NCBI GenBank assembly: GCA_964525995.1 | Contig: CAZGIM010000012.1 | Location: 3,636 to 67,635, forward strand | DNA: 64,000 nt | DNA from: an uncultured Prolixibacteraceae bacterium | GTDB taxonomy: Bacteria > Bacteroidota > Bacteroidia > Bacteroidales > FEN-979 | Direction: 5' to 3' | In this document: piece after piece, positions 10,952 to 32,069 of the stretch | Layout of the letters: each line of letters starts with the position of its first letter | Numbering within the stretch: position 1 is the first letter of the stretch | Notes under the pieces: generated by a model | Database searches by the model: none | What the model saw: only the letters and a program-made list of their open reading frames with translations | Told to the model about the DNA's origin: nothing | Made by a program: the position numbers and the translations under genes

Positions 10952-13900
10952 CTATTTTTCTTCGTTCAGAATGATCAGTTTCTTGATAATCCTGGTCTGA
11001 CCCCGCTGGAGGATCAACTGATACAATCCGGCCGGCGGGTTTCCCAATTCGATTGTCAGGGTCCTGGTTCCCTGAAACTCCGATTGTTTTACAATTTGTT
11101 TCAGGTGCCCGAGATTATCGGCCAGCCAGATATCGAGGGGCTCCCCGGAACCGGTATTATTCCATTCAACAGTGATCCGGTTGTCGGCCGGATTGGGATA
11201 AATTTTAACTCCTGTGTCATCCTGAGTCCCAATTCCCACCGGATAAATAACAACGACATTGGAGGGGTCGGATACACATCCGAACGGACTGGCAATCACG
11301 AAATAATGTCCGGGTATGTATGCCACATATTGCTGAGCTGTGGCGCCGGGGATGGGCTGATTGTCGCGGTACCACTGGTTTCCTTCAGGTGCACTGGAAA
11401 CCAGGGTGTCGGGGTCAATTACCGTTACGATGGGGGCTTCAGGATATGGATGTACCGAAATATGCAGTACCGGCGAGTAAGGCCCGTTTCCGCAGGTGTT
11501 GATCCCGAAAACGGAGATATTTCCCGACTGGGCATTTTCGCCAAAGCTAACTGTTATGATATTGGTGTTGGCCCCTCCGGTTATGACGGCTCCTGCCGGC
11601 ACAGCCCAGTCATATCCGATGGCATCCGGTATCAGGGCAACCGAATAGATCACTCCCGTCAGCGGCTTACAGATCAGGGTGTCGCCTGCAATCGCACTGG
11701 GTGTTCCGGGAATAGACCGCACCAGTACCGCCATTGATGAAAGCTGCGAGTTACAGCCTGCCGGTGTGTTATAGGTCACCGTGACTGTCTGCGCGCCTGG
11801 CGCCGTCCAGTAGATCTGAATACTCCGGGTCCCTTGTCCCCCGACAATAATTCCCCCCGAAGTAACGGTCCAAAGGTAGTTCACCATGCCCTGCTCGGTC
11901 AGATAGGTATAATTTCCTGATGTCATACAGGGATTGTTATTACCTGTGATGGTCGGAACCGGAACCGCATTGACGGTTACAGGCAGATTGGTGGGAATGG
12001 CAGCGGTACATCCGTGGGCATCGGTATAATTGACCGAAACTCCCTGTACTCCGGCGGTATTCCAATTCACGGTGATCATGTTGGTTCCGGCCCCGGAGAC
12101 GATCACACCGCCAGCCGTAACACTCCATTGGTAGTTGATCATACCGCCTTCGGTTGAATATACAACCCCCATGGTTCCCGCACACAGTGAAGTCTGTCCC
12201 GAAATAATGGGTACCGGCTGGGAATAGACTGTGACCGTATGAGTGGATGGAGTGGCCGCCGTACAACCGTTGGAATTGGTATAGTTAACCGTTACCGTTT
12301 TTGGTCCGGCAGTGGTCCACTGAACCTGGATGGCATTGCTTCCGCTTCCCGAAAGGATGGTTCCTCCGGCCGACACCGTCCATTGGTACCCCGTCATCCC
12401 GGTCTCCGTGGTATGATTGGTGGTCCCTCCTAAACATGATAGGCTGTTTCCTGTTATAGTGGGGACAGGCAAAGCATTGACTGTAACAGTTTTCGATGTC
12501 GGTTGACCGGCGGAACAACCATTACTGTTGGTGTAATTCACTGTGACACTCTGTGTTCCGGCGGTAATCCAGGTTACGGTGATAATGTTGGTACCTGCCC
12601 CGGCTGTAATGGTTCCTCCGGGTGAAATGTTCCATATATAATTCAAAAACCCGGGATCGGTGCTATATGCAACACCCGTCGTTCCGGCACAGACCGAAGA
12701 TATCCCAATGATTGTGGGATTCGGGGAGGTTTGGACGACCACCGATTTCAGCGTGGGTGCGGCAGCGGTGCAACCCAGGGCGTTGGTATAATTCACGCTG
12801 ACCCATTGGGCACCTGCCGTATTCCATGCAACGGTGATGCTGCTCGTATTGGTGGTGGTTGAGGTCAGTATTGTTCCCCCGGGTGATACATTCCATATAT
12901 AGTTGGTCATCCCCGGTTCGGTAACATAAATGTTGTTGATTGATCCGGCGCAGGCCACGGCATTTCCGGTAAGCGTCGGAACTGGGAGCGGATTAATCGT
13001 TACACCGAACTGCGTCGGCGCCGATGCCATACATCCTGCAGGATTGGTATAATTCACCGAAACCACTTGTGGGGTCAGGGTATTCCAGGTCACCGTGATG
13101 GTTCGGGTTCCGGCCCCTGAGGTTATGACTCCTCCCGACGAAACGGTCCAAAGGTAATTGGTCATTCCCGGTTCTGTAAAATAAAGATTGCCGGTTGATC
13201 CTAAACAAGCGTTACCGCTTCCGGTAATAGTCGGAACCGGCAAGTCGGAAACTGTTATGGCCTTGGAAGTAACCTGCAGCGGATAACATCCGTTAGAATC
13301 CATGTAACTCACGGTAACAGTCTTGGTACCGGCCGACGACCAGGATATAACGATAGAATGGGTTCCGGCCCCTGCAATGATGGTGCCGCCCTGACTGACC
13401 GTCCATTGGTATGAATTCATCCCCGGTTCAGTGTTACAGGTTGTGATGCCGTTAACACAAGCAACGGGGCTGTTCGTGATAGTCGGAATTGGCAATGGAT
13501 ACACTGTCACGGTCTTCTGGGAAGGCGTAAGAGCGGGACATCCGTTGAGATCGGAATAAGTAACCGTGATTGACTGTACTCCGGCTGCTACCCAGTCAAC
13601 GGTTATCGCATTGGTCCCGGCCCCTGAGGTGATGATCCCACCGGGTGTGATGGTCCAGGAATAACCGTTCATCCCTGCTTCGCAGTAATAAACGGCAGTA
13701 GTACCGTTGCATATCTGCGACAAGCCTGTAATCACCGGTACCGGTGCTGGTGCAACGACTACATTCCTGACCGTGGGCGAGGCGGCCGGACATCCTGCGG
13801 GATCGGTATAATTTACCGAAACCCATTGACTTCCCGGTACCGACCAGGTAACGGTGATCGTGGCCGTACCCAATCCTGAGGTGATGATTCCTCCCGTGGA

Positions 13901-16900: not shown

Positions 16901-19900
16901 TGTCACCGAAATGGATTCCGTTCCCTGACCTGAATCAATGGTGCCGCCGGATCCGACATCCCAGATATAATCTGTCATTCCTGGTTCTGTCAAATAGATA
17001 TTGCCCGGCATTCCCTGGCAAGGGGCGGCCGGTCCGGTGATGACGGGGGCCGGAAGCGGATGAACCGTCACCGTGACTACAGCCGAAGCTGCAGCCTGAC
17101 ATCCGAATTCATTAGCATAATTAACCGAAACCTGCTTTGTTCCGGATCCCGTCCAGGTGACAGTGATCATATTGCTTGTCGGGGTTCCCCCGGAGGTGAC
17201 GGTTCCACCCGGTGATACGACCCACGAATAGTTGCTTTTCCCGCTTTCGGTAACATAAACATTACCGGAGGTGTTTTGACAAACCGAATCGGGACCTGAT
17301 AGAGTCGGAACCGGTCTGACATTGACAGTCACGGCAAATACAGCCGGCGTCAGAGCCTGGCAACCAGCTACACTGGTATAGTTCACACCAACCCACTGTG
17401 GTCCGGTGGCATTCCATTGAACTGTGATAGTGCTTTCGTGAAGTGAAGGATTGGTAAGGATTGTTCCGCCCGGGGATACTGTCCAGGAATAGGTACCCAT
17501 TCCGGTCTGGGTACTGTAGTTGTTGTTCACCGACCCGTTGCAAGCGGTTGTGGCACCTGAAATCACAGGATTTGACGGTCGTTCGTTGATCGAAATATTA
17601 TACTGGCTGGGCGATGCTGCGGTACAACCATATGGATCCGTATAACTGACCCTGACATACTGCAAACCGGTTGAGGTCCAGTCAACGGTTATGGTCGAAG
17701 TTCCGCCACCAGTTGAAATGGTTCCTCCTGATGAGACCGACCAGTTGTAACCTGTCATTCCCGATGCCGTTGAAAAGATACTCCCTTCCCCGCCGGAACA
17801 GGCAAAGGTAGGTCCTGTTATCACCGGTACAGGCGGGGCAAGTACCCTGATGATCTTGTCGGCATATGAAGGACATATGTAGGTGGTAGTATAGCTTACG
17901 GTCACCTTCCCGTTGCCGGCTTGGGTCCATTTCACCGATATGCTGCTGGTTCCCTGTCCCGAAGTGATAATCCCGCCGGTAACAGTCCATTGATAAAGCG
18001 CCATTCCCGATTCCGTTGAAAAGACCAAGGTCCCGTTCAAACATATGGTGTCACTTCCTGTTATGGTGGCTAAGGGCGTAGAATTTACCGTCACATTTTT
18101 CACTGTGGGGATCAGGGTAGGACACCCGAAGGTATTCAGATAGCTTACGCTTACAGTCTTCGCCCCGGAAGTATTCCAGACCACTGAAATGGAATTGCTG
18201 CCAGATCCGGAGACTATGGTTCCGCCCTCGGATAAGGTCCAGACATAATTGGTCATTCCCGCTTCGGTGCTGTAAAATACCGTAGTACCTGTACAGGCAA
18301 TGGAGGAGCCGGTGATTACCGGCTGGGGAGATGGAAAAACGGTGATGATTTTAGAGGTCGGTGTTGCTGCAATACACCCCGACGAATTTCTGTAATTCAC
18401 GGTGATGGTTTGCGTGCCTGAACTGACCCAGTCAACGCTGATAAAATAGGTTCCCTGTCCCGATGTAATGATCCCTCCCGAAGTTATGGTCCAGACATAA
18501 TCGGCCATCCCCTGCTCGGTAAAATAGATGACACCGGAACTGGACGGACAAATGGAGGTTGTGCCGGTAATGGTTGGAACAGGCGCCATATAAACCTGAA
18601 TATTTTTCTGAGTCGGCGTTGTAGCGCTACATCCGCCCGGATCGCTATATCTTACCGTTACATACTGGGCCCCTGCTGAATTCCACCTTATGGAAACGGT
18701 ACTGGAATTGGCCGGTCCGATAATAGTACCCCCCGACGAAACGGTCCAGATATATCCCGACATCCCTGTTTCGGTACTGTACACTTCGGTAAATCCCGTG
18801 CAGGAGGGATCAGGGCCGTTAATTGTGGGAATGACGGTGGATTGCACCGTGACGGTTTTAACCGTAGGCGCCAAAGCCGTACATCCGTTTGCATTGGTAT
18901 AATTGACGGTTATTTGCTGATTTCCTGTTGAATTCCAGGTGACAGATATCGAATTGGAATTGGCCGGTCCGTCTATAGTTCCGCCAGTAACCGACCAGGC
19001 ATAACCAGTCATTCCGGTCTCGGTGGTATAGATATTTCCTGAGGTGCTGACACAAGCCATGGCAGATCCCGAAATGGTGGGTACCGGCAAGGGATTAACC
19101 GTTATTTTAACCGCGTTGGTATAAAGGGTTCCGCATGAACCAGAGCTTGTCTGTGCCTGTCTGTACCAGGTTGATACGGTAAGGATTCCCGGTTGATAGG
19201 TCATTTGGGTAGCGCCAGATATCGGGGTAAAGTTCAGGTTATCGGTCGATTGTTCCCAATTGAAGAAGTAAGGTGTTACACCACCGGTTGGCATGGTTGC
19301 AGAAAGGATCAGTGGAGACTGGGTGGCACAAATCGATTGATTCGCTGATGCAGTGCCGGCTATGAACTGAGGATAAACGGTGATGTTGTAAGTGGAAACC
19401 GGCCCTGTGCAACCGTTTGCTACCGGCGTGACGGAAATGACAGCATTGATTGGCACAGACGATGCATTGGTGGCAGTAAACGATGGCACTGAAGTCCCGG
19501 ATCCGGAAACGGCAAGTCCTATTGCCGTATTGCTATTAGTCCAGGTGAAGGTAGTCCCCGCAACAGTCCCGTTCAGTTGGGTGGCAGGGACTGTCACTCC
19601 GTTACAATAAATCTGATCTGCGATAGCAACAACTGTTGGTTTGGGTTTAATCGTTACTAATACACTGGTTGAACCCGAACAGCCTTCTGTCGCTGTTTCC
19701 ATGACCGTCAGTGTAACCGTCTGATTCACTGAGGTATTATTGGTCCAGATCACATTGACGGGCGAACCAGTCGATCCACCGTTAAAAGTACCGTACCACA
19801 AGCCGGTGACCGGTGTCAGCGACCATGCGAAAGAAGATCCAGGAGCGCCGGAGGCAGAATAGGATGTGGATTCTTCGGGACAGGTCAGCAAAGATCCGCT

Positions 19901-20879: not shown

Positions 20880-23800
20880 TTACTGTTTCACGATCCTGAA
20901 AATATGTACCTCTTCACCCGACAGGATGCGGAGGATATAAATTCCCCCGGGGTAACCCCCGATTGAAACTTTAAAATCGCGACTATTGCTTAGTTTTTCT
21001 GATTGAATCCGTTCACCTCTCATGGAATAGATCTCAATCCGTGATCCTTCGTCAAGGTCGTTTCCCGAATATTCAATATTGAAAATTCCTGTTGTGGGAT
21101 TGGGGTATATCTTAAACTTCGACACCGGAATTTCTGTCAACGGAGGTTCAACGGCAGTAGGTACCGTGACCATCGTGGGCGCACTCATTCCACAATAGAT
21201 GCCATTGGTAGTTATATATCCATGTAGTGAACCTCCCTGTTCTACCGTAGTTCCCGGTAAAAAAAGAATATTCTTACCGGCGATAAACGTGGCAGCACCA
21301 CCGGAATGCACTATAAAGTAAGTACCGTAGCCGGCTACTGTGATGGTTTGTACCGCATCATAACATTCGTTCTGACCTGGTCCGATCTGGATATTCTGTA
21401 CTGTCACCACAGCCGGCGGCAATACTTTAACAGCATATATGACCGGCGCAACCGTACGACATCCCGAGGCGTTCACAACCTCCAGGCTGACATTCTGGTT
21501 TCCGGTTGCACCCCAGCTCACCTGGATTGCCTGGGTACCTGCGCCGCCAATAATGATACCTCCAGCTGATACCGACCAGTTATAGGAGATCATTCCGGCG
21601 TCAGCCGTATAAAGTACCGTACTTCCGACTGTAATTATTGAAGGTCCTGATATAACAGGTGCCGGAGTAGGTAGAACCGTTACCGTTTTTGGTGTCGGAA
21701 ATTCAGCCCTGCATCCTCCCGGAGTCGTATAATTAACCGTTAAACCTGAGAAGCCCGGAGTTTGCCATACCACCGTGATGGCGCTGGTTCCCTGTCCTCC
21801 TGTTATGATGCCCCCCGGTAAGATGGTCCATTGGTAATTGCTCATTCCCGCCTCGGTACTATACATCACAGCCGAAGAGGCACAGGGTGATGAGGGTCCC
21901 GCGATGGTGGGTACCGGAGGTGTCGACACTGAAACCGGCAATACCGTGGGAACTGCTGTCGGGCATCCCTGAACATCGCGGTAGCCAACTGCAACCGATT
22001 GGGATCCTGTTGTATTCCACCTGACGAAAACCGAATTGGTATTTTCACCCGAAAGGATGGTTCCGCCCTGGGTGACCGACCAACTGTACTGACTCATTCC
22101 GGCTTCGGTAGTATAATTGAATACACCTCCTGTACAGGGATTCAAAGAGCCGTTGATGGAAGGAACGGGCAATGGATTTACCGCTACATTTTTAACGGTT
22201 TGATTGGCCGCCTGACATCCCAGAGTATTGGTATAATTTACCGTCAGGGTTTGTGTTCCCGAAGTGATCCAAGATACCGTAACAGTTTGTGTTCCATTTC
22301 CTGCCGTGATGGTACCTCCCGAAGAGATAATCCAATTGTAGTTCGTCATGCCCGGATCGGTATAATAAACCACTCCCGAAGATCCTTCACAAACCGACGA
22401 AGGCCCTGTGATCACAGGTGCGGGCAGCGGGGAAACCGTAACCGGAAATGCGGCCGGGGTCAGTGCCTGACAACCGGTTTGAGGGTTGGCATAATTCACC
22501 ATTACCATTCTGAATCCGGGTTGGTTCCATCTCACCTGAATTGTAGCAGTGCCTATCCCCGATGTAATCGTGCCACCACTACCGACACTCCAGTTATAAA
22601 GCGACATCCCGGCTTGCGTAGCGTACGTCGCGGTCTGATCCAGACAAACCTGTGAAGACCCAGAAATCGTAGGAATCACAAGTGGATTGACATAGACGGT
22701 TTTCATCGTTGGTGTGGCGGGAGCACATCCATGTTGATTGAGATAGGTGACCGTTACTGTCTGGACTCCCGGGGTGTTCCAGGTAACTAAAATGGAATTG
22801 GTATTCTGCCCCCCGGTGATGGTACCACCGGTAGAAACCGACCAGGTATATCCCGTCATGCCCGGATCGGTGTTATAAACCATCCCTCCCACACCCGGAC
22901 AAACGTTAACCGGACCGGTCAGAAGCGGTACCGGCAATGGATATACCACCATAGCAACGGGTCCCGATGTTGCAGGATTTCCGGAGAGACAGGGAGAAGG
23001 CAGGCTCGAAGTAAGCACACAGGTCACCACATCGTTTGCTGCCGGAACATAACTGAATACAGCCTGGTTCGTTCCAACATCCGATCCGTTGACCCTCCAT
23101 TGATAAGCCGGATTCGTACCTCCGTTGACAGGATGTGCAGTAAACGTTACCAGGGTCCCGGCACAGATCATATTGGTTGAAGGGGTAATGCTTACGCTTA
23201 CCGGCGGATAATTGGAGCAGGTATCCTTCAGACATCGTACCGCCAACCCAAGCGACTTATTGTTGGGATTCCGGCCAGCTCCGGTTAGCGAGCCGGCTAA
23301 AAATCTTGTCCAGGCATTGGTGGTACTGTTCTGAGTTGAAGAATAAAAATATCCGAACTCCTTAAGGTTTCCGAAAGTGCCGTCGGTAAACCGCAAGCCG
23401 GCTCCTAAACCCGTGAATCCACTGGTGTTGACGGCCCCTGCATTGGGCGATGACCAGTGGGTGGTTCCCACTTCCTTCATCTTTCCTCCGGCAACACTTT
23501 CTCCGCCAAGATAGGAGGTCAGCACCGACCACTCTTCGTCGGTGGGTATATGCCATCCCGATGGACAGATCCCCTGAACTCCAGGTAAAGCAACATATTG
23601 CATCAATTCATTCCATTGATACAATCCGCCATAAACTGAACAATTGGATTCCAGGTCCAGGTAACAATATTTTTCAATGATCCCGTTGCTGGTCTGCTCC
23701 TGATTGCCATTGATACGTGTTCCGGCATCCAGGTTCTCCTTAAACCAGCACTGGTTGCCGATTTGCACAGTATGATAAGTTTTTCCCATATACGTGACTG

Positions 23801-26800
23801 TAGGAATGCCCTGACAGGGAACGCCATATAGGATACCCATAACAATTAGATTCGAGGTCGCCTGAGGATTGACAACACAATAAAAATTCGAAGTCACAGT
23901 ACAGACGATGGAATCATTTTCTGAAGGGACATAGGTGAAAGTTGGACTGTTGGTTCCGGCAATGATTCCATTCACCCGCCATTGGTAAACAGGATTGGTG
24001 CCCCCGTTCACCGTGGACGCAGTAAATGTTACGGCATTTCCGGTCAACACCGGATTTTGGGATACCACGATCGACGCCCCGACAACAACGGGCTGGGTTA
24101 TATTGACCGTTTTCAAGGGGCTGGAGGCGCTGCATCCGTAGCCATTGGTCACCAAGACCCGGAGCGTTCCCTGTGCCGGTCCCGGCCCCCCCCAGAAAAT
24201 GTTACAGGTTGACTGTGCCCCGCCGGAAAGGATTTGTGTACCAGAGGGTCCGGTTACCGTCCAGGAATAGGATGACATTCCGGGTTCTGTAAAATATATA
24301 TGCCCGCCGGTATTCTGACATACCAGATCGGTTGGATCAGAAAAACTTGTGATCGACGGTGTGGGCGCCGGGTGTACTGCCACCATAAGTGGTGTCGCAA
24401 CCGATGCCTGACAACCGTTTTCGTTCAGATAATTTACCGTGATGATCGGATTCCCGGGGTTCAGCCAGGTAATGGTAACTGATCGGGTTCCCTGTCCAGA
24501 GGTTATGATACCCTCGGATGTTACCGTCCAGAAATAGGAGGTCATTCCCGGTTCGGTGAAATATACATTACCTGTGGTATTCTGACATCCTGATGAAGCT
24601 CCCGTGATAACCGGTACCGGCAGGGAGTTGACTGTCATGGTGTGGGTGGTTGCTACTGCTGCGGTGCATCCGTTTGTGGTGGTGTAATTGATCCCGACCT
24701 GCTTCAGACCGGTTGTATTCCAGGTCACCGTAATAAAATCACTTTCAGCAGTTCCTCCGCCGGTCACAGTTCCATCGGGCGATACAGTCCAGGTGTAGTT
24801 ATTCTGCCCAGCCTGCGTGACAAAGGTATTACCGTCCGCTCCCTGGCAGGTTGTCGTAGGACCGCTGAGGGTCGGCACCGGCAACGAATGAACGGTCACG
24901 GAGTAAGTAGCCGGGAGCGTCGCAAGACAACCGGCAGTGTTCTGGTAATTTACGCTAACCCATTGCGAGCCCGGAGTATGCCATAACACCTCAATAGTAT
25001 TGGAATAGGCTGAAGGAGTCGTGATGATCGTACCGCCTTTTGAAATGGTCCATTGATATTGTATCATGCCCGGTTGCGTGGTGTATGTCGCCCGGGTTCC
25101 GGGACAAGTACCGGCAGTACCGGTGATGATCGGAGTGGGCGGACGGGCATTGATGGCCAGGTTGAACTGTGACGGAGTCGCGGCAGTACATCCATGTTGA
25201 TCGGTGTAGATGACAGATACCGACTGCAATCCTGCAGTATTCCAATATACAGTGACACTGTTGGTCCCCGAACCGGTAGTTATCACGCCATCGGCCGAGG
25301 CGCTCCAGATATAATCCGACATTCCGGTTGCGGTGTAAAATTCAGATCCCGGGCCTCCGGTACATCCATACTGCGGACCGCTGATCACCGGTACCGGCGG
25401 GGCATACACCGTAATATTTTTCACGGTAGGTGTTACGGCCTGACATCCTCCCATCGGATTGACATAGTTCACCGAAACTGTACCTGGTCCCGACTGGATC
25501 CATTTAACTGCGACACTATTGGTTCCCTGCCCGGATGTGATCAATCCCCCTGAACTCACCGTCCAGTCATACATCGCCATTCCGGGATCAGTTGAAAAAA
25601 CAACCGTTCCATTCAGGCACACCGTATCGGCTCCCGTAATGACCGGAAGCGGAGATTGGTAGACCTGGATCATTTTACTGCCGGGCACCAGCGTCGGACA
25701 ACCCTGGGCGTTGAGATAGGTGACGGATATGTTAAAGGTACCGACCGAGGACCACCGTATGCCAATCGTATTGGTTCCCGATCCGGAAATTATGGTTCCT
25801 CCCGCATCCAGATTCCAAATATAATTCGTCATTCCGGTAGCTGTGGAGTAATAGGTAGTCGTGCCGGTGCAAACCGGTGTTTGTCCTGAAATAACCGGTA
25901 CGGCAGCGGGTTGTACGGTAACCTGCTTTACGGCAGGCTGGGGTGCGTGACAACCCGACAGGTTGGTATAATTAACTGTCACACTCTGGGTTCCTGCTGT
26001 CGTCCAAGTGACTGCTATCGCACTGGTGCCCTGACCACCGGTGATCGTTCCACCCTGCACAATCCAGGTATATTCTGCCATTCCGGTCTCCGTAAAATAG
26101 ACCACTCCGGCGCTTCCCTGGCAGATTGATCCCAGGCCTGTAATAGTTGGCGCCGGCGAAGCATTGACGGTAACCGGTTTAACGGTTGGTATGGTCACTG
26201 TACATCCTAGGGCATCGTTGTAAATCACACCCACATTCCGGCTTCCGGCCGTGTTCCACAGCACCGTGATCTGGTTGGAACCCTGACCTGATACGATCGT
26301 TCCGCCACCCAAAGGCAAGGTCCACACATAATTGAGCATTCCGCTTTCGGTCGAATAAGTGCATGGAATCGATATACAGGCAGGATCAGGCCCGGTAATC
26401 GAAGGCACAATGGTGCTTTGTACCGAGACGGTCTTCGTTCCGGGCGCCGCGGCGACACAATTATTTTGGTCGGTATAGGTCACCGAAACGGTCTGTATCC
26501 CGGCAGTATTCCAGGTGACATTGACAGAACTGTTATTAACAGGACCCGCGATCACGCCTCCGGTCACCGACCAGTTATAACCGCTCATGCCTGTTTGAGT
26601 TGAGTAGATATTGTTGGTCGAATTGATACAAGCCGCCCCGGCTCCGGAAATTGTTGGAACAGGCAACGGATGAAGACTTATTTTCACTGCGTTGGTGTAT
26701 ACCGTTCCGCATCCATCGGAAGATATTTGTTTTTGCCGGAACCAGGTATTTACTGTAATGGGGCCTGGCTGGTACGACATCCCGGTTGATCCGGGTATAT

Positions 26801-29800
26801 CAACGAAAACGTCATTATCAACCGATGACTGCCATAAAAAACTGTAAGGTGGAACGCCTCCCCGGGGCTCCGTTGCCGAAATTCCGGATGGAGTGGAACC
26901 ATAGCAAACAGTCTGGCTTGAAGTCGTTGCTCCGGCAACCAACCGCGGTAAAACGGTAAAGTTAAAGGTGATGGGTTGTCCCGAACAGGTATTTTCTCCG
27001 TTAACTGACACAGGAGTCACTGTAATCACGGAAGTCACTGTGGTTGTTCCTGCATTGAGCGCTGTAAATGGCATGATATTGCCGCTGCCCGAAATCGGTA
27101 GCCCGATGGTCGGATTGGAGTTGGTCCAGTTGTAGGATGTGCCTGTTCCCGTAAAGGTTACGATCTGCGTTGTTCCCCTGTCACAAATTTCCTGACTGAT
27201 TACCGCATTGACAACAGGTGAGGGATAGACGGTATAGGTAAAACTTTTTGAAAGGCCGGTACAGGTTATCATGGGTCCCGCAGAAATTGAGGGAGTCACT
27301 GTGATAGTTGCCGTCATGGGTGTGGTCCCGGTATTGGTTGCCGTGAAGGTCCCGATATTCCCGGTACCACTCCCGGGGATGCCAATGTTCAGATTGGTAT
27401 TGGTCCAATTGAACACTGTACCGGGAACATCACTGGTGAAAGGCAGGGCTGTCGTTACTGAACCGTTACACGTCGTTTGATTGGCGATATCATCGACGAC
27501 AGGCTTTGGACTAATGGTCAGGGTAAACGTTACCGTTGATCCGGAACAGCTAAGTCCATCGGTAATTGATATGGGAGTGACTGAAAGGGTTGCAATGACC
27601 GGCGAACTTCCTGTATTGGTCGCAGTAAAGGTACCTATGTTGCCTGTTCCGGTCTCTGGTAATCCGATCGAAGGCTGATTATTAGTCCAGTCATAACTGT
27701 TACCTGTCCCTGAAAACGTTATGGCTGTAGTCGGTGCTTCGCTGCACACCGTTTGATTTTCAACCGGGTTAACCACCGGCAACGGATAAACCGTTGTCGT
27801 CAGGGTCCCGGCTGTGAGTGAGGTACATCCTGAAACGGTCGTGTAGTTAACGGTCACAGTTTGCGTTCCGGGTTGATTCCACTGTACCTGGATCGTGCTG
27901 GCATGGTTCGAGGGGTTGGTCAGGATCGTTCCTCCGGAAGAGACACTCCAACTATAGGTGGTCATTCCTGCAAGTGTGCTGTAGGCAACAACCGATCCCG
28001 CACACGCACCGGCCGGACCGCTGATCATCGGGTTTGCCGGCCGGGCATTGATGGTGATGTTGTAAGAGGATGGCGACGATGAACTGCATCCGTGTAAATC
28101 GGTGTAGCTCACATAAATTGTCTGTAATCCCGCGGCGCTCCAGGTTGCCGTCACGGTGCTGGTACCGCTAACAGGGGTTACAGTACCTCCAGTCGAAACA
28201 CCCCACGTATAATTGGTCATTCCCGGTTCCGTTGAAAAGGTATATCCACTCCCTTGTGTGCATCCAAATGCCGGTCCGCTGATTACAGGCACCGGTAGGG
28301 AATATATCGTAATATCTTTCACCTTTGCAGCCACCGCCTGGCATCCGCCCGACGGGTTTGTATAATTGACCGAAACAGTCCTTAATCCTGCCTGTGTCCA
28401 CTTCACCGTGATATTGCTGGTACCGGCACCCGAAAGAATGGTCCCCCCTGCTCCGACTGTCCAGGTGTATAAAGCCATTCCGGATTCCGTCGTGTAAGTA
28501 ACCGTTCCGTTAAGGCATACTGTATCGGCCCCCGAAATAGTGGGTTGCGGCGACTGGTTTACAGTCACTCCAAAAGCGCCGGCTGAAAGGGTCGGACAAC
28601 CCTGAGCGTTCAGGTAGGTCACGGTGACGGTATGAGAGCCGGTCACCGTCCAGGTAATACCAATGGAGTATGTCCCGGCTCCCGAAGTGATCGTTCCACC
28701 CGATCCCAGGTTCCAGACATAATTGGTCATCCCTGTCTGGGTCGTATAATAGTTCGTGGTTCCGGTACAGCCAATAGTTGGTCCCGTGATGGTTGGAGCC
28801 GCGGCCGGTTGTACCGTAACAGTTTTAATTGTTGCTTCCGACGCCCGACATCCGGCCGGATTGGTGTAGTTAACCGTAACGGTTTGCGTTCCGGCCGAAT
28901 TCCATGTAACGGAAATCGCACTGGTGTTGCCTCCTCCCGTAATTGCTCCCCCCGTAACACTCCAGGTGTATCCGGTCATTCCCTCCTCTGTAAAATAAAC
29001 CACTCCGGCGCTCCCCTGACAGATAGGGGTTGTTCCCGTGATGTGTGGATTCGGAGCAGTATGTACTGTAATGGGCATTACTGTTGGAGTCTTGGTTGTA
29101 CACTCTGACGCATCATTATAGATCACGCTCACACTCCGGTTTCCCGGTGTGCTCCAGTTTACGTTAATCCGGCTTGTTCCCTGTCCGGAAACGATGGTAC
29201 CGCCTCCCAGCGGCAACTCCCAGATATAATTGAGCATGCCGCTTTCGGTCGTGTATTCCGATTGACCGGATGTGCACGCCGGATCAGGACCATCGATGGT
29301 CGGGATGATAATATTTTGAACGGTTACAGTCTTAGTCGCAGGGGTCAGCGCAGTACAACCGTCAGGGGTGGTATAATTCAAACTCACCTGCTGCGATCCC
29401 AGCGTATTCCAGGTCACCGTGACGGTAGTGCTTGTGTATGTTCCTCCCGCTGTAATGATTCCTCCGACAACGCCCCATTGATAGTTGGTCATTCCTACTT
29501 CGGTACTGTAAACATTGTTGGTCGAATTGTAACAGGCGGCAGCCTGGCCACCAATGCCAATGACCGGCAGTGCACTTACCGATATCTTTACCGGATTGGT
29601 GTAAACCAATCCACAGCCGCCTGATGACGATTGTCTGACCCGGTACCACTGGTCAGCAGTCACCGGTCCCGGTTGATAGGTCATGGATGATGCGCCACCA
29701 ATAGCGGTAAATTCAGTTCCGTTGGTTGATATTTCCCAATCGTACAGGTATGGCGGAACCCCGCCGCTCAAAGCGGTTGTGGTCAGCAATTCCGGCGCCA

Positions 29801-32069
29801 TCCCGTAACAAACCGTCTGGCTTGCCGTTAACGACCCGGCCTGCAACTTCGGCGTTACGGTAATGGTAAATGTCATGGGGTTTCCATTGCAAGGGATGCC
29901 CGCGTTCGAATAAACCGGTGTCACGGTAATGACAGCCGTGACCGTAACCGTGCCTGTATTCATGGCGGCGAAAGAGGGTATGGAATCAGAACCCTCCGGT
30001 TCGAGCCCTATCGAAGGCTGACTATTTGTCCATTGATAAACTGTTCCGGTAACAGTTCCTGAGAACATGACGGCAGTTGTCGGATACCCGTGACAGATTA
30101 CCTGATTTTCTTCAGGGTCTACATCAGGCGTCGGATTTACCGTCACCGTGTAGGTTCTCGTTGCCCCCGGACATCCGTTGGCCTCCGGTGTAATGGTAAC
30201 CACTCCCTGAACCGGGGCCGTCGTGGTGTTGCTCGCGGTAAAGGGCAGGATATCGCCTGTACCGCTTCCTGCCAGTCCGATCAGCGGATTGTCATTGGTC
30301 CACTCAAAAGTGGTTCCGGGAACAGGCCCGCTTACCGGTGTGGCCGGTACCTCAGCGTTATGACAATATACCTGGTTGCTGATCGGGGTTACCGATGGAG
30401 AAGGCTTTACGGTAATGGTAAAAGTCATGGGGGTTCCACTACATTTGGTATCTCCGTTCGAGAATTCCGGTGTCACGGTAATGACAGCCGTGACCGTAAC
30501 CGTGCCTGTATTCACGGCGGTGAAAGAGGGTATGGAATCAGAACCCTCCGGTTCGAGCCCTACCGAAGGTTGACTATTTGTCCATTGATAAACCGTTCCG
30601 GTCACGGTCCCTGAAAACACGACGGCATCGGTCCTGGACCCGTTACAGACCACTTGACTCTCTTCAGTATCCACATCAGGCGTCGGATTTACCGTCACCG
30701 TGTAGGTCTTTGTTGATCCCGTGCAGCCATTGGCAACCGGTTGAATTGTAATGACGCCCATGACCGGGAGCGTGGTCGTGTTGCTTGCCGTAAAAGCCGA
30801 TACATTTCCGGTTCCGCTTTCCGGTAATCCGATCATAGGTTGGGAGTTTGACCAGAAAAAGGTGGTACCTGGTACCGGACCTGTTACAGGGGTCGCCGGA
30901 ACCTGGTCTCCGGGACAATGGTACTGATTGCTTATTGCTTCCACCGTCGGAGACTGAATGACCTTCACATTTTTTGTGGCGGCTGCCAATCCCGGGCATC
31001 CGTTGGAGGGGTCGGTGTAGTTAACCGATACATTCGTATTTCCGGCCTGTGTGAATCTTACCGTAACGGTTCTGGTCCCGCCGCCCGACATAATGATGCC
31101 TCCTGTTCCGACAGTCCAGGTATACATCGATTTCCCGGGATCTGTCGAGTATGTATAAGTGCCATTCGAACAAACAGTATCGGGGCCGTTAATCACCGGA
31201 TCCGGTGATTGGCTTACGGTAACTGCCTTTATTCCCGGGGTAAGGGCCCAACAATTGGTACCCGGTTCCGTATAGGTGACTGTGATGGTATAAGTTCCCA
31301 CAATATTCCAGTTAACCCTGATGGAATTGGTTCCGTTGCCCGAAACGATGGTACCACCCGATGTCAGGGTCCAGACATAGTTATTCTTTGAAGGGGCAGT
31401 GGTGTATGTCATAATGGTACCCGTGCAGGCTGTATTGCCAACCGGACCTATTACCGGAACAGCGGCCTGGTTTACCGTAATGCTACTTGTCGCGGTTGGA
31501 GAAGCGGTGCACCCCGATGAATTGGTATAGTTGACCGTAATCGTATAGGTGCCCCCGACCGGCCAGTCAACGGTGATTGCATTTGGTACCGGACCAGAAG
31601 CAAATGGCGTTGAAGGGGTGATGCTCCAGGAATAACCGGTCATTCCCGGTTCCGTAAAATAGACAATACTGGTGGTTCCCTGGCAAATTGAGTTAGTACC
31701 CGTAATCTCCGGTGTCGGTCTTGCATTTACGGTAACCGTCATCGATGCTGTTCCGGAAGGGGTTCCGCCGGCTGCATTCACTGTAATGATCACCGTTTGC
31801 GGTGTTGCGCCCCAATCAATGGTAACAGCATTGGTTCCCTGCCCTGCCGTGATAGTTCCTCCTGATCCGGGTGTGATCGTCCAGGTATAGGTTGAAGTGC
31901 CGGGCGTTGCCGAATAAACAACACCGGTTTCAGCCGTACAAACATGATCGGGGCCCGCCGTTATGGAAATCTGCGCTAACCCCGTGATGGGGATCAGGAA
32001 AAAAACAAATAATATCAGAAATAGACCTGAAATGAATCTGGGATTCAATCGCCGGTTTTGAGTCTTCAT
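20880..32069 (-). CDS. Giant T9SS-secreted repeat protein G2 (3729 aa): 4 A-modules, 4 B, C, 7 A, 3 B, C, 10 A, Ig-like, FISUMP domain, Ig-like, 6 A, unknown pre-CTD domain, type-A T9SS CTD
   Basis: Single uninterrupted ORF with a signal peptide (FFLIPITGLAQ). Same A/B/C module families as G1. C-terminus FKIYPNPTTGIFNIEYSG...HIFRIVKQ. Stop is 76 bp upstream of the G1 start. Confidence 0.85.
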   Translation of the reverse strand: MKTQNRRLNPRFISGLFLILFVFFLIPITGLAQISITAGPDHVCTAETGVVYSATPGTSTYTWTITPGSGGTITAGQGTNAVTIDWGATPQTVIITVNAAGGTPSGTASMTVTVNARPTPEITGTNSICQGTTSIVYFTEPGMTGYSWSITPSTPFASGPVPNAITVDWPVGGTYTITVNYTNSSGCTASPTATSSITVNQAAVPVIGPVGNTACTGTIMTYTTAPSKNNYVWTLTSGGTIVSGNGTNSIRVNWNIVGTYTITVTYTEPGTNCWALTPGIKAVTVSQSPDPVINGPDTVCSNGTYTYSTDPGKSMYTWTVGTGGIIMSGGGTRTVTVRFTQAGNTNVSVNYTDPSNGCPGLAAATKNVKVIQSPTVEAISNQYHCPGDQVPATPVTGPVPGTTFFWSNSQPMIGLPESGTGNVSAFTASNTTTLPVMGVITIQPVANGCTGSTKTYTVTVNPTPDVDTEESQVVCNGSRTDAVVFSGTVTGTVYQWTNSQPSVGLEPEGSDSIPSFTAVNTGTVTVTAVITVTPEFSNGDTKCSGTPMTFTITVKPSPSVTPISNQVYCHNAEVPATPVSGPVPGTTFEWTNDNPLIGLAGSGTGDILPFTASNTTTAPVQGVVTITPEANGCPGATRTYTVTVNPTPDVDPEENQVICHGYPTTAVMFSGTVTGTVYQWTNSQPSIGLEPEGSDSIPSFAAMNTGTVTVTAVITVTPVYSNAGIPCNGNPMTFTITVTPKLQAGSLTASQTVCYGMAPELLTTTALSGGVPPYLYDWEISTNGTEFTAIGGASSMTYQPGPVTADQWYRVRQSSSGGCGLVYTNPVKISVSALPVIGIGGQAAACYNSTNNVYSTEVGMTNYQWGVVGGIITAGGTYTSTTVTVTWNTLGSQQVSLNYTTPDGCTALTPATKTVTVQNIIIPTIDGPDPACTSGQSEYTTESGMLNYIWELPLGGGTIVSGQGTSRINVNWSTPGNRSVSVIYNDASECTTKTPTVMPITVHTAPNPHITGTTPICQGSAGVVYFTEEGMTGYTWSVTGGAITGGGNTSAISVTWNSAGTQTVTVNYTNPAGCRASEATIKTVTVQPAAAPTITGPTIGCTGTTNYYTTQTGMTNYVWNLGSGGTITSGAGTYSIGITWTVTGSHTVTVTYLNAQGCPTLSAGAFGVTVNQSPQPTISGADTVCLNGTVTYTTESGMALYTWTVGAGGTILSGAGTSNITVKWTQAGLRTVSVNYTNPSGGCQAVAAKVKDITIYSLPVPVISGPAFGCTQGSGYTFSTEPGMTNYTWGVSTGGTVTPVSGTSTVTATWSAAGLQTIYVSYTDLHGCSSSSPSSYNITINARPANPMISGPAGACAGSVVAYSTLAGMTTYSWSVSSGGTILTNPSNHASTIQVQWNQPGTQTVTVNYTTVSGCTSLTAGTLTTTVYPLPVVNPVENQTVCSEAPTTAITFSGTGNSYDWTNNQPSIGLPETGTGNIGTFTATNTGSSPVIATLSVTPISITDGLSCSGSTVTFTLTISPKPVVDDIANQTTCNGSVTTALPFTSDVPGTVFNWTNTNLNIGIPGSGTGNIGTFTATNTGTTPMTATITVTPSISAGPMITCTGLSKSFTYTVYPSPVVNAVISQEICDRGTTQIVTFTGTGTSYNWTNSNPTIGLPISGSGNIMPFTALNAGTTTVTSVITVTPVSVNGENTCSGQPITFNFTVLPRLVAGATTSSQTVCYGSTPSGISATEPRGGVPPYSFLWQSSVDNDVFVDIPGSTGMSYQPGPITVNTWFRQKQISSDGCGTVYTNAVKISLHPLPVPTISGAGAACINSTNNIYSTQTGMSGYNWSVTGGVIAGPVNNSSVNVTWNTAGIQTVSVTYTDQNNCVAAAPGTKTVSVQSTIVPSITGPDPACISIPCTYSTESGMLNYVWTLPLGGGTIVSGQGSNQITVLWNTAGSRNVGVIYNDALGCTVTIPTVKPVTVNASPAPTITGLGSICQGSAGVVYFTETGMAEYTWIVQGGTITGGQGTSAIAVTWTTAGTQSVTVNYTNLSGCHAPQPAVKQVTVQPAAVPVISGQTPVCTGTTTYYSTATGMTNYIWNLDAGGTIISGSGTNTIGIRWSSVGTFNISVTYLNAQGCPTLVPGSKMIQVYQSPLPVITGADTVCLNGTVVFSTDPGMAMYDWTVSSGGLITSGQGTNSVAVKWIQSGPGTVSVNYVNPMGGCQAVTPTVKNITVYAPPVPVISGPQYGCTGGPGSEFYTATGMSDYIWSASADGVITTGSGTNSVTVYWNTAGLQSVSVIYTDQHGCTAATPSQFNLAINARPPTPIITGTAGTCPGTRATYTTQPGMIQYQWTISKGGTIITTPSAYSNTIEVLWHTPGSQWVSVNYQNTAGCLATLPATYSVTVHSLPVPTLSGPTTTCQGADGNTFVTQAGQNNYTWTVSPDGTVTGGGTAESDFITVTWNTTGLKQVGINYTTTNGCTAAVATTHTMTVNSLPVPVITGASSGCQNTTGNVYFTEPGMTSYFWTVTSEGIITSGQGTRSVTITWLNPGNPIITVNYLNENGCQASVATPLMVAVHPAPTPSITSFSDPTDLVCQNTGGHIYFTEPGMSSYSWTVTGPSGTQILSGGAQSTCNIFWGGPGPAQGTLRVLVTNGYGCSASSPLKTVNITQPVVVGASIVVSQNPVLTGNAVTFTASTVNGGTNPVYQWRVNGIIAGTNSPTFTYVPSENDSIVCTVTSNFYCVVNPQATSNLIVMGILYGVPCQGIPTVTYMGKTYHTVQIGNQCWFKENLDAGTRINGNQEQTSNGIIEKYCYLDLESNCSVYGGLYQWNELMQYVALPGVQGICPSGWHIPTDEEWSVLTSYLGGESVAGGKMKEVGTTHWSSPNAGAVNTSGFTGLGAGLRFTDGTFGNLKEFGYFYSSTQNSTTNAWTRFLAGSLTGAGRNPNNKSLGLAVRCLKDTCSNYPPVSVSITPSTNMICAGTLVTFTAHPVNGGTNPAYQWRVNGSDVGTNQAVFSYVPAANDVVTCVLTSSLPSPCLSGNPATSGPVAMVVYPLPVPLLTGPVNVCPGVGGMVYNTDPGMTGYTWSVSTGGTITGGQNTNSILVTWNTPGVQTVTVTYLNQHGCAPATPTMKTVYVNPLVIPTISGSSQVCLDQTATYATQAGMSLYNWSVGSGGTITSGIGTATIQVRWNQPGFRMVMVNYANPQTGCQALTPAAFPVTVSPLPAPVITGPSSVCEGSSGVVYYTDPGMTNYNWIISSGGTITAGNGTQTVTVSWITSGTQTLTVNYTNTLGCQAANQTVKNVAVNPLPVPSINGSLNPCTGGVFNYTTEAGMSQYSWSVTQGGTILSGENTNSVFVRWNTTGSQSVAVGYRDVQGCPTAVPTVLPVSVSTPPVPTIAGPSSPCASSAVMYSTEAGMSNYQWTILPGGIITGGQGTSAITVVWQTPGFSGLTVNYTTPGGCRAEFPTPKTVTVLPTPAPVISGPSIITVGSTVLYTADAGMISYNWSVSAGGIIIGGAGTQAIQVSWGATGNQNVSLEVVNASGCRTVAPVIYAVKVLPPAVVTVQNIQIGPGQNECYDAVQTITVAGYGTYFIVHSGGAATFIAGKNILFLPGTTVEQGGSLHGYITTNGIYCGMSAPTMVTVPTAVEPPLTEIPVSKFKIYPNPTTGIFNIEYSGNDLDEGSRIEIYSMRGERIQSEKLSNSRDFKVSIGGYPGGIYILRILSGEEVHIFRIVKQ
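23225..23825 (-). other. Fibrobacter succinogenes major paralogous (FISUMP, TIGR02145/PF09603-type) domain embedded in G2
   Basis: VPCQGIPTVTYMGKTYHTVQIGNQCWFKENL...GGLYQWNE...CPSGWHIPTDEEWSVL...GGKMKE...W.....NTSGFTGLGAG.R...G.F...G..GYFYSS...RCLKD, aa ~2749-2948 of G2. Confidence 0.75.
24880..26945 (-). repeat. G2 internal paralogous block copy 2 (C-module + A-module subtypes 1-7)
   Basis: Offset ~968 aa (~2.9 kb) from copy 1. Module-by-module correspondence is visible in the translation, roughly two-thirds identical in the subtype-2 module by eye. Confidence 0.7.
26946..27782 (-). repeat. Second block of three B-modules in G2
   Basis: aa ~1430-1708: ..YDWTNNQPSIGLPETGTGNIGTFTATNTG.. / ..FNWTNTNLNIGIPGSGTGNIGTFTATNTG.. 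/ ..YNWTNSNPTIGLPISGSGNIMPFTALNAG.. Confidence 0.75.
27783..29849 (-). repeat. G2 internal paralogous block copy 1 (C-module + A-module subtypes 1-7)
   Basis: Same module order as 24880..26945. Shared subtype-specific signatures include Y(I/V)W.LPLGGGTIVSGQG, GADTVCLNGTV..., GGTI(L/I)T.PS. Confidence 0.7.
29850..30956 (-). repeat. Tandem duplication: 2 x 552-bp (184-aa) unit, each encoding two B-modules, in G2
   Basis: GTCACGGTAATGACAGCCGTGACCGTAACCGTGCCTGTATTCA... begins at 29920 and again at 30472 (offset 552). It continues near-identically for >130 nt with scattered substitutions. Protein copies: SGTVTGTVYQWTNSQPS(V/I)GLEPEGSDSIPSF(T/A)A(V/M)NTGTVTVTAVITVTP. Confidence 0.85.

Follow-up and report, generated by a model that had tools for sequence, protein, structure and literature searches.

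[quoted passage not shown] In Bacteroidota, few T9SS cargoes are as large or as abundant as the giant Ig-like repeat proteins, of which only SprB, RemA and GhpA have been studied functionally. The locus is a clean, conserved example with tandem paralogs and defined module blocks, in which the single FISUMP domain of B offers a handle for ligand hunting. It may thus serve as a test case for the stalk role of the PKD_6 module, for FISUMP ligands, and for the order of type A-anchored fibers as compared to the GhpA grappling hooks.

Architecture of the locus

An earlier sequence-only reading had reported two giant same-strand open reading frames of 3283 and 3729 aa, 76 bp apart, and a third, smaller protein carrying the same module. 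The coordinates of the pair proved exact, and translation found one stop only, the terminal one, in each of the two frames.

10952..20803, minus strand: gene A, encoding a T9SS type A cargo of 3283 aa, downstream member of the pair (ORF, Pfam/NCBIfam)
20804..20879, minus strand: spacer between B and A, 76 nt
20880..32069, minus strand: gene B, encoding a T9SS type A cargo of 3729 aa, upstream member of the pair (ORF, Pfam/NCBIfam)
47555..51031, minus strand: gene C, 1158-aa T9SS type A cargo (Pfam/NCBIfam)

Neither a terminator-like nor a sigma-70-like site was found in the 76-nt spacer, and co-transcription of B and A is therefore counted as probable. The corresponding spacer of a relative is 278 nt long, with the last ~70 nt conserved between the two. 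A perfect palindrome occurs in two copies, solely upstream of B, and is not conserved in the relative; an invertible promoter or operator at this place was considered and not retained.

The modules were counted in two ways. A Pfam profile search (gathering threshold of PKD_6, PF19408, 25 bits) matched PKD_6 in 29 stretches of A (810.5 bits, E 1.9e-250) and 26 stretches of B (580.3 bits, E 1.3e-178), and an HMM built from the proteins themselves gave 29 full-length canonical modules in A (aa 570-3029) and 26 in B (three at aa 115-371, seven at 832-1428, ten at 1800-2659 and six at 3043-3550), plus a weaker N-terminal copy in the latter. The total of 55-56 canonical modules, about 85 aa each, agrees with the roughly 56 copies counted by eye, and the suspected resemblance to PF19408 was borne out as well. 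So was the two-cysteine skeleton, which is reproduced by the consensus xxxPVPxITGxxxxCxGxxxxxYxTExGMxxYxWxVxxGGTIxSGxGTxxIxVxWxxxGxQxVxVNYTNxxGCxA, where columns Y32, W34 and C73 never vary and C15 is missing from just one of the 56 modules. The described richness in T, G, S and V with few charged residues also holds (T 15.6-16.3%, G 11.5-11.7%, S 9-10%, V 10%; D+E+K+R just 5.5-6.4%). As for the idea of arrays built from one module, PKD_6 does predominate, but that reading had missed eight PKD_5-like, three Ig_7-like and two further Ig-like modules in A and B together, and the FISUMP domain in B. The features of A, from the N-terminus, are the following.

20708..20803, minus strand: signal peptide, aa 1-32, ending ...SNSISA/QV, the slash marking the putative cleavage site (inspection)
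19631..20707, minus strand: distal N-terminus with four PKD_6-like modules of divergent sequence, aa 33-391 (own HMM, 12-24 bits)
19097..19630, minus strand: one PKD_5-like (aa 392-478) and one Ig_7-like module (aa 479-569) (Pfam)
11717..19096, minus strand: 29 canonical PKD_6 modules in an unbroken array, aa 570-3029; higher-order period of nine modules (own HMM)
11459..11710, minus strand: PKD_6 module of a second subtype, aa 3032-3115, common to protein C (Pfam)
11204..11458, minus strand: small beta domain ahead of the CTD, aa 3116-3200, with 38% identity to its counterpart in C; no Pfam match
10952..11203, minus strand: type A T9SS C-terminal sorting domain (CTD), aa 3201-3283, and stop (Pfam/NCBIfam)

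B has a more interrupted layout.

31974..32069, minus strand: signal peptide, aa 1-32, ending ...ITGLA/QI (inspection)
30957..31973, minus strand: four N-terminal (distal) PKD_6 modules, aa 33-371 (own HMM)
29865..30956, minus strand: four PKD_5-like modules, aa 372-735, containing a recent 300-nt duplication, 86% identical (Pfam)
29577..29864, minus strand: Ig_7/SprB-repeat-like module, aa 736-831, 49-53% identical to two paralogs (sub-threshold Pfam)
27786..29576, minus strand: PKD_6 block b1, seven modules, aa 832-1428 (own HMM)
26940..27785, minus strand: three PKD_5-like modules, aa 1429-1710 (domain comparison)
26673..26939, minus strand: second Ig_7-like module, aa 1711-1799 (sub-threshold Pfam)
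24093..26672, minus strand: array of ten PKD_6 modules, aa 1800-2659, the first seven forming block b2 (own HMM)
23838..24092, minus strand: Ig-like module IgX-1, aa 2660-2744, flanking FISUMP (weak PKD/PKD_3/Ig_3 matches)
23205..23837, minus strand: FISUMP / Fib_succ_major domain, aa 2745-2955 (PF09603, TIGR02145)
22944..23204, minus strand: Ig-like module IgX-2, aa 2956-3042 (similarity to IgX-1, 50% identical)
21420..22943, minus strand: proximal array of six PKD_6 modules, aa 3043-3550 (own HMM)
21111..21419, minus strand: pre-CTD domain of ~100 aa, aa 3551-3653, conserved in P0002 and P0004, dN/dS 0.07; no match in Pfam or in a PDB sequence search
20880..21110, minus strand: type A T9SS C-terminal sorting domain, aa 3654-3729, and stop (Pfam/NCBIfam)

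Conservation and repeat evolution

Repeat-rich sequence from a metagenome-type source invites the suspicion that the arrays are collapsed, expanded or chimeric assemblies, or else decaying pseudogenes, and Logan short-read contigs do break inside B. This break, however, is situated in the non-repetitive FISUMP region rather than in the repeats, and the exact protein A was recovered in two independent Logan assemblies. As DNA, the module copies share no more than 60-70% identity, and TRF called no tandem array. Full-length orthologs exist for both genes, all in Bacteroidales metagenome-assembled genomes (MAGs). Those of A in L003 and L004 have 3282 aa as compared to 3283, at 81% amino acid identity (dN/dS 0.087 at dS 1.3 for L003, uniform along the gene), while the P0002/L016 ortholog of B is 79% identical and colinear with four gap positions (dN/dS 0.15). 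No internal stops were found in the orthologs of A and B in other MAGs, and the tandem order of B followed by A is retained, together with the upstream neighbors, in GCA_028706295.1. With DNA copies this diverged, orthologs colinear to within 1-4 residues, the same tandem order and dN/dS values of 0.09-0.15, A and B are intact genes under purifying selection; the artefact explanation is largely refuted and hardly credible.

The individual modules have kept their identities. Orthologous module pairs are about 81% identical as compared to 43.5% for paralogous ones, the skeleton residues show zero substitutions between orthologous modules, and even the most variable module column is changed in just 45% of the orthologous pairs. 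Judged from these alignments, the module arrays of A and B are not subject to concerted evolution. A higher-order block of 7-9 modules is repeated in register in both proteins, i.e. blocks b1 and b2 of B and blocks a1 and a2 of A, seven modules each, are mutually in register. Identity between the in-register blocks of A and B is 0.52-0.58 as compared to 0.41-0.43 otherwise, a value reached in none of 2000 permutations.

One conceivable explanation is that A and B are two subunits of a single ordered multi-stranded surface fiber, with strands paired domain by domain. This would account for a number of non-interchangeable modules that stays fixed across species (kept within 1-4 residues at dS about 1), for the 7-module register shared in the same order, for the position-specific module identities, and for the persistent adjacency of two probably co-transcribed genes, since strands that pair in this way must preserve both number and register. 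Position-specific conservation would, on the other hand, equally be expected in any old non-recombining array, and we regard the two-subunit fiber as improbable.

Module fold, stalk and candidate head

An AF2 model of one module, a check proposed in the sequence-only reading, is all-beta with a pLDDT of 97.4, and the predicted fold is that of a PKD/Ig-like beta-sandwich. The best Foldseek matches, and thereby the closest solved folds, are PKD domains of the clostridial collagenase ColG (4tn9/4aqo, TM 0.76) and of AAVR (TM 0.69-0.75). At 12-16% identity, these ColG/ColH and AAVR domains have neither the C15/C73 pair nor the TExGMxxYxW motif, and their copy number is 1-5 as compared to the arrays of 26-29 seen here. 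The cysteine pair is a feature of the family as a whole, with the two-cysteine skeleton found in 1566 of 1622 PKD_6 modules (147 proteins) and both cysteines nearly always occurring together; in each module it probably forms a putative stabilizing disulfide.

The PKD domains of ColG and ColH contribute to substrate binding, and the PKD_6 modules might likewise bind by themselves, acting either as a multivalent, low-affinity 'Velcro' for a polymer or for cells, or as a surface coat, with FISUMP as one site among many. Targets named for such binding are polysaccharide, mucin, the plant or algal cell wall, and other cells. This reading would suit A, in which nothing besides the 29 canonical modules is a candidate for binding (the Pfam scan recognized no adhesive domain in A), and the purifying selection that acts on every single module, surface positions included. 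Stalk and adhesive roles can also be interchangeable according to the survey of fibrillar adhesins (bioRxiv 10.1101/2020.12.07.414375). No binding site is identifiable in the modules, however, and their conserved aromatics alternate along the predicted strands as core residues do. Furthermore, the same module is paired with many different other domains in thousands of proteins, which suits a generic spacer. We therefore find binding by the modules themselves rather unlikely.

A stalk is also the only role under which the module has been catalogued. The profile search assigned it not to a well-characterized functional family but to PKD_6, which Monzon et al. (bioRxiv 10.1101/2020.12.07.414375) list among the stalk domains found in fibrillar adhesin-like proteins, and a literature search found no paper that characterizes a PKD_6 protein. 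The family has 16,790 cluster representatives, and its proteins reach up to 53 modules and up to 7,315 aa. Many are 2,000-7,300 aa long with 10-53 modules, many end in T9SS domains, and A and B are found near the top of the family in canonical module number. Considering the size of this family, the locus counts as a member of an already known kind, and by their sequences A and B belong to a class of fiber-like Bacteroidota surface adhesins that is very large and has been catalogued before, rather than to a new category.

In the preferred reading, i.e. that of adhesin-like stalks, each anchored product would form one unbranched chain, about 38-43 Ig-like domains long, with its N-terminus distal to the cell, the stalk proper being made of PKD_6, PKD_5-like and Ig_7-like modules and measuring roughly 130-150 nm when scaled from GhpA. 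The FISUMP domain, flanked by an Ig-like module on either side and some 780 residues away from the anchor, would then be the candidate binding head of B. As A has no recognizable head, it would perhaps bind via its divergent N-terminal modules or via the array itself.

In B, the FISUMP domain (aa 2745-2955) represents its family (PF09603, TIGR02145; CLec2 proteins of diversity-generating retroelements, DGRs, e.g. Legionella LdtA) at full length, matching PF09603 at 125.1 bits (cut-off 33.9; E 5.3e-36) over profile positions 1-187 of 187 and TIGR02145 at 116.5 bits (cut-off 41.65; E 2.1e-33), and it keeps the conserved cysteines of the family. Its AF2 model is compact (pLDDT 94.5). A sequence search of the domain against the PDB found nothing, and the model had no PDB match with E < 0.3, C-type-lectin-like domains appearing only in the non-significant tail. 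A survey of DGRs groups Fib_succ_major with the CLec2 variable proteins of C-type-lectin fold, whose variable region is C-terminal (PMC5758913), and by this analogy the fold is probably C-type-lectin-like. No other region of B is as constrained as FISUMP (dN/dS 0.04), whose most variable part, both in the family and among three orthologs, is the C-terminal third, just as DGR targets have their variable stretch there; specificity would be located in this third. Typical FISUMP proteins are standalone and 200-370 aa long, whereas this domain sits two thirds along a 3,729-aa array. The nearest cellular relatives are small standalone proteins, which fits the capture of a binding module by B, and FISUMP-like domains were also found inside large phage proteins (E 1.8e-18, TM 0.70). 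These features suggest that FISUMP is the most likely candidate for a ligand-binding part of B. Diversification of the domain by a DGR was rejected for this window, as neither template repeat nor reverse transcriptase is present, i.e. the 64 kb hold no second FISUMP-coding DNA copy and no YxDD-bearing long ORF, and Pfam scans of the neighbor genes gave no reverse transcriptase.

Export and comparison with known surface fibers

Signal peptides and type A sorting domains had been read from the letters on both giant proteins, and both stood up. By inspection, A, B and C start with a basic n-region, and the hydrophobic core behind it leads to a small-x-small site with Q as the next residue (ISA/Q, GLA/Q and ASA/Q, respectively), in line with the Bacteroidota 'Q-rule', by which Q follows the signal-peptide cleavage site. 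The C-terminal matches lie above the curated cut-offs of PF18962 (27 bits; A 38.4, B 41.3 and C 40.0) and TIGR04183 (23 bits; A 26.3, B 36.3 and C 25.9), and finish 0-8 residues from the C-terminus. None of the T9SS machinery genes SprA/Sov, PorV, PorU, PorZ and PorLMKN was found within the 64-kb window, which does contain four further CTD-bearing ORFs, two of them above threshold. From their own sorting domains and these four other genes nearby we infer that A and B are exported, first by Sec and then through the type IX secretion system via the type A domain. Type A cargo, as described in PMC9143113 and PMC8545088, is cleaved by PorU and then linked to A-LPS. Release of such cargo instead of anchoring is also possible. 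Once exported, A and B would accordingly either be released or have their new C-terminus covalently joined to anionic LPS.

Among described systems, the fibrillar adhesin-like proteins of Monzon et al. are one of the closest, sharing with A and B both the PKD_6 family and the head-to-tail arrangement of tandem stalk modules. The definition used in that study combines tandem stalk domains, of which A has 29 PKD_6 and B 26, plus PKD_5-like ones, with at least one known adhesive domain. A has none, and thereby lies outside the strict definition of stalk plus adhesive domain, and the FISUMP domain of B is not one of the 24 adhesive domains of the study, which counts against its role as a head. By analogy A and B would work like fibrillar adhesins.

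Another giant T9SS substrate, GhpA of Aureispira sp. CCB-QB1 (PDB 9flp and related), forms a heptameric 'grappling hook' whose disulfide-stabilized stem holds about 52 Ig-like repeats, and lateral assembly of A and/or B into a rigid, multi-stranded appendage of this kind is the structural counterpart of the two-subunit reading above. GhpA is the best match of the module profile among PDB sequences (E 5.6e-4, in many weak stretches), and its neck domains match the module model (TM 0.67, 19% identity), though these values are weak and at the level of a generic PKD/Ig fold. In the GhpA stem, Ig-like domains are held by disulfides from domain to domain and by hydrogen bonds from strand to strand. 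The disulfides, as reported, join neighboring domains, not cysteines within one domain, a point against the bond proposed here within each module. GhpA also has a hook module of about 1,400 aa and, encoded downstream, the PorP/PorE homologs GhpB/C as proposed anchors, whereas A and B have a type A domain, unrelated downstream genes, and N-termini made of further PKD_6 modules. Taken together, GhpA-like assembly seems doubtful at best. If A and B nevertheless were subunits of one fiber, FISUMP would be shown laterally at a defined height, and the fiber would add to the grappling hook a second class of supramolecular appendage built by the T9SS, one with type A anchoring. Heavy O-glycosylation as on GhpA was another rejected candidate: the Bacteroidota motif D(S/T)(A/I/L/V/M/T) is not enriched in A or B (six observed vs about seven expected per protein), and such glycosylation is consequently not predicted by that motif.

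The size and architecture had also been likened to SprB-class adhesins. This stands insofar as SprB and RemA of Flavobacterium johnsoniae are, as A and B by sequence, very large, T9SS-dependent surface repeat proteins, but goes no further than analogy. The proposal that follows from it, i.e. that A and B are mobile adhesins carried by a gliding machinery, draws on their size, Ig-like repeats and T9SS signal, on weak SprB-repeat/Ig_7 similarity in three modules, and on RemA, described in a review as a SprB paralog which joins a large repeat protein to a lectin domain much as B joins repeats to FISUMP. The best SprB-repeat (PF13573) score, obtained in one Ig_7-like module, is nevertheless 16.2 bits and thus far under the cut-off of 28, with no match in the whole-protein scan. 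NCBIfam reports TIGR04183 only and no type B domain (TIGR04131) in A or B, type B being the one associated with PorP/SprF-like proteins, and no PorP/SprF-like gene is found among the neighbors. Gliding genes are missing from the window, and to our knowledge gliding is not typical of Bacteroidales, to which the MAGs of the relatives belong. A gliding role is thus very improbable.

Directly downstream, an Asp_protease_2 gene starts 23 nt after A and is followed by an overlapping gene with four CBM48 domains. This pair was found in 13 loci, but only the two closest relatives have a giant PKD_6 gene upstream of it, the other 11 loci having none, and the two genes were rejected as operon partners of A and B.

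Protein C had been credited with one copy of the module and with the same C-terminal architecture. Its location and type A domain were correct, but it holds four PKD_6 stretches (247.1 bits), one being canonical and three of the second subtype. Over its last 250 residues C shares 37% identity with the C-terminus of A, but not with that of B. The start ATG of C at 51031 falls within a TTG-started ORF beginning at 51085.

Architecture of the two giant genes

Two giant same-strand genes 76 nt apart had been proposed by the sequence-only reading, and both were found, with B upstream of A and a spacer of 76 nt between them:

10952-20803, minus strand: gene A, 3283 aa
20880-32069, minus strand: gene B, 3729 aa

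As had also been claimed, each N-terminus has, by inspection, the typical shape of a signal peptide, ending A|Q, and each protein terminates in a type A T9SS C-terminal sorting domain (CTD), with TIGR04183 and PF18962 above their curated cut-offs. Pfam assigned the bulk of A and of B to the suspected PKD-like family, i.e. PKD_6 (PF19408), of which A has 29 matching stretches (E 1.9e-250) and B has 26 (E 1.3e-178). An HMM built from A and B themselves identified 29 canonical full modules in A (aa 570-3029) and 26 in B, in runs of 3, 7, 10 and 6, together with a weaker N-terminal copy, and the earlier figure of about 56 modules is therefore correct. The consensus and both cysteines agree with the two-cysteine skeleton described earlier, C15 being present in 55 of the 56 modules and C73 being invariant. 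Both proteins are rich in T, G, S and V, with charged residues making up just 5.5-6.4%.

The picture of arrays of a single module stands insofar as PKD_6 dominates, but A and B are mosaics that include other small module types and, in B, a complete Fib_succ_major (FISUMP) domain (aa 2745-2955; PF09603 E 5e-36, TIGR02145 E 2e-33), flanked by two Ig-like modules that are similar to each other; the three together span aa 2660-3042.

Module order of A and B from N- to C-terminus
A, first part: signal peptide, four divergent PKD_6-like, one PKD_5-like, one Ig_7/SprB-repeat-like, then 29 PKD_6
A, C-terminal end: one second-subtype PKD_6, a small beta domain, CTD
B, N-terminal half: signal peptide, four PKD_6, four PKD_5-like, Ig_7-like, seven PKD_6, three PKD_5-like, Ig_7-like
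B, remainder: ten PKD_6, Ig-like, FISUMP, Ig-like, six PKD_6, an unassigned domain of ~100 aa, CTD

As this order shows, a super-unit of one or more PKD_5-like modules, an Ig_7-like module and at least seven PKD_6 modules is found once in A and at two places in B. Inter-module identity in A is maximal at an offset of nine modules (0.507 vs ~0.44), and four blocks of seven modules were delimited:

A570-1161
A1333-1927
B832-1428
B1800-2394

The identity between these blocks is 0.52-0.58 in register vs 0.41-0.43 out of register, and the observed value was reached in none of 2000 permutations. The ~100-aa domain before the CTD of B (aa 3551-3653; 21111-21419), without a match in Pfam and PDB sequence searches, is kept in the two B-type relatives P0002 and P0004 and is strongly constrained (dN/dS 0.07).

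Integrity, age and selection

One rival explanation is that the arrays are artefacts. Self-comparison of the DNA, which had been named as a check, showed just 60-70% identity between module copies, and TRF called no array in the DNA of A and B. The sole long DNA repeat of the 21-kb region is a 300-nt pair in the PKD_5-like region of B (29851-30150 and 30403-30702; 86% identical, spaced 552 nt), which arose comparatively recently when a two-module PKD_5-like unit was duplicated. Protein A is encoded exactly in two independent Logan assemblies, and full-length orthologues of both proteins are present in related Bacteroidales MAGs, with 81% identity for A (3283 vs 3282 aa) and 79% for B (3729 vs 3727 aa, four gap positions). 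The tandem order B to A and the upstream genes are the same in the relative. A and B are thus real genes and not artefacts. The two short-read contigs with the exact copy of A (L001 and L002; Logan SRR11845627 and SRR11845628) begin within B at ~aa 2857, in non-repetitive FISUMP-coding DNA outside the repeats. Another related locus, L003 (SACF01000004.1), is titled 'Alphaproteobacteria bacterium' and has a Bacteroidales-type locus; its protein A is 97% identical to that of L004, from a Bacteroidales MAG, and a binning or labelling error is probable for the contig.

A has a dN/dS of 0.087 at a dS of ~1.3, even along the gene, while that of B is 0.15. Identity between orthologous modules is ~81%, against a paralogous mean of 43.5% (maximum 67%), which argues that the modules are old, individually constrained and not homogenised through gene conversion. 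No orthologue substitutions were found at the skeleton positions P6, G10, C15, T25, M29, Y32, W34, G40, W55, G59, V65 and C73, and per-position variability correlates between orthologues and paralogues (r = 0.76). Compared with its counterpart in the related locus L016 (L016:2501-13684), B has a dS of 0.4-0.8 at aa 372-1428 and 1800-2744 and of 1.1-2.8 at aa 1429-1799 and 2745-3729, and this very uneven synonymous divergence suggests that B has a mosaic or recombinant past.

Family, fold and a candidate binding head

A search with the module profile recovered 16,790 cluster representatives at a threshold of E <= 1e-3, of which 1,972 reached E <= 1e-30. Among the representatives are proteins of 4,771-7,315 aa with 50-53 modules, and several kinds of C-termini occur. 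In a set of 147 other proteins with 1,622 modules, 96.5% of the modules have both cysteines, and the pair probably forms a disulfide, either intramodule or intermodule. PF19408 was itself made as a stalk-domain family for such proteins (bioRxiv 10.1101/2020.12.07.414375). Given this family, its many representatives and the family-wide cysteine skeleton, A and B are thus not a new class but further members of an already known class of PKD_6 proteins, for which a search of the accessible literature found no paper on a characterised member. As a conserved and well-documented case of a common protein class, the locus is modestly notable for the strict position-specific conservation of its modules, the shared higher-order blocks and the embedded FISUMP. 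The earlier likeness to SprB-class adhesins holds for giant size, a T9SS signal and Ig-like repeats, but by membership tests A and B are not SprB-family proteins; a role as gliding adhesins was weighed as an unlikely rival reading.

AF2 on a single module, with the 56 paralogues as alignment, gave a confident all-beta model (pLDDT 97.4), closest, in line with the proposed resemblance, to the PKD-like domains of the collagenases ColG/ColH and of AAVR (TM 0.69-0.76). The top PDB sequence match of the module profile is GhpA (E 5.6e-4), the neck of which aligns to the model with a TM of 0.67. GhpA is a 5,898-aa T9SS-secreted 'grappling hook' of Aureispira, with a stem of 52 Ig-like repeats bearing disulfides and O-glycans, in an entire appendage of 240 nm. 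Scaled by the same ratio, A and B, if extended, would measure roughly 130-150 nm. A multi-stranded fibre as in GhpA was weighed as a less likely rival reading; A and B are not GhpA homologues in the strict sense.

The closest relatives of the FISUMP domain are standalone proteins of 200-370 aa, at most 64% identical. Its confident model (pLDDT 94.5) had no significant neighbour in the PDB, with C-type-lectin-like domains just in the weak tail, while in a viral library the fold was found within phage proteins of 375-1026 aa (E 1.8e-18, TM 0.70). In work on diversity-generating retroelements, Fib_succ_major, DUF1566 and DUF823 are placed together in CLec2, a class of variable proteins with a C-type-lectin fold in which the variable residues lie at the C-terminal end (PMC5758913). 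FISUMP is the most constrained region of B (dN/dS 0.04), and within it the C-terminal third (…TRFLAGSLTGAGRN…) varies most, across the family as well as between three B-type orthologues, the variable stretch of B lying at aa 2923-2940. No such retroelement was found in the window. From its relatives, model, phage occurrence, CLec2 grouping, constraint and variable third, FISUMP is therefore likely the ligand-binding head of B. A competing idea, that the array itself acts as a multivalent binder, was weighed as less likely. With FISUMP as the candidate head, B agrees with the fibrillar-adhesin survey, in which adhesive domains of Bacteroidetes are often central (bioRxiv 10.1101/2020.12.07.414375).

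A and B would most likely be exported by Sec and then translocated by the T9SS via the type A CTD. The type A route, as described in PMC9143113 and PMC8545088, comprises PorU-type cleavage and attachment to anionic LPS (A-LPS); for A and B, PorU-type removal of the CTD would likewise be followed by A-LPS attachment or release. The outcome would be long strings of Ig-like domains, tethered C-terminally, with B presenting its probably lectin-like FISUMP ~780 residues from the anchor.

Genomic neighbourhood and protein C

By its closest genome records, the organism belongs among the uncultured Bacteroidales. Scans of the neighbouring genes found no PorP/SprF or PorE homologue near A and B, and no terminator-like site was found in the spacer. 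In L016 the spacer is 278 nt (L016:13685-13962); conservation is confined to the ~70 nt adjoining the start of A, which implies a gain or loss of ~200 nt. Two copies of the perfect palindrome TTGAAATATTTCAA are present in the 64-kb window (32072-32085 and 32408-32421), both within 426 nt upstream of B (0.28 expected; two reached in 0 of 100 shuffles). The copies, neither conserved in L016, flank the sole TAnnTTTG motif of this upstream region (32344-32351, minus strand), the proximal one ending 4 nt before the ATG of B, and may represent paired operators, an inverton-like repeat or a chance occurrence.

Downstream of A, on the minus strand (8476-10928), lie two genes, one for a 337-aa Asp_protease_2 (retropepsin-like) protein and, overlapping it by 4 nt, one whose 480-aa product carries four glycogen-binding modules of the AMPK1_CBM/CBM48 type. 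This pair was found in 13 Bacteroidota loci (L003-L015; 34-81% identity, same overlap style), with a giant gene upstream solely in the two closest relatives, and was therefore rejected as a part of the A/B system. Secreted proteins are densely encoded here, with four other CTD-bearing ORFs:

5281-8214
34586-35323
35345-36418
41254-42693

They encode an FG-GAP/ASH protein and one of 245 aa, whose sorting-domain hits fall just short of the Pfam cut-off, followed by an Omp28-like protein and a Peptidase_C10 that has an inhibitor_I69 prodomain, whose hits exceed it.

For the smaller protein C (47555-51031), the shared module and the A-like C-terminus (37% identity to A over 258 aa) were borne out, but it carries one canonical and three second-subtype modules rather than one. 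Pfam gave no match to its aa 1-460 (49652-51031), and a weak Big_2 match lies between these and the PKD_6 modules. Flanking the gene C region (42849-47436 and 57669-62437) are multi-PAS sensor histidine kinases of 847, 769 and 817 aa, in a cluster with a 519-aa hybrid kinase/response regulator. An unusual minus-strand trio (51096-57490) encodes a 417-aa GAPDH-like protein, a 1365-aa protein with PPDK_N and PEP-utilizer mobile domains in its C-terminal third only, and a canonical 334-aa GAPDH.
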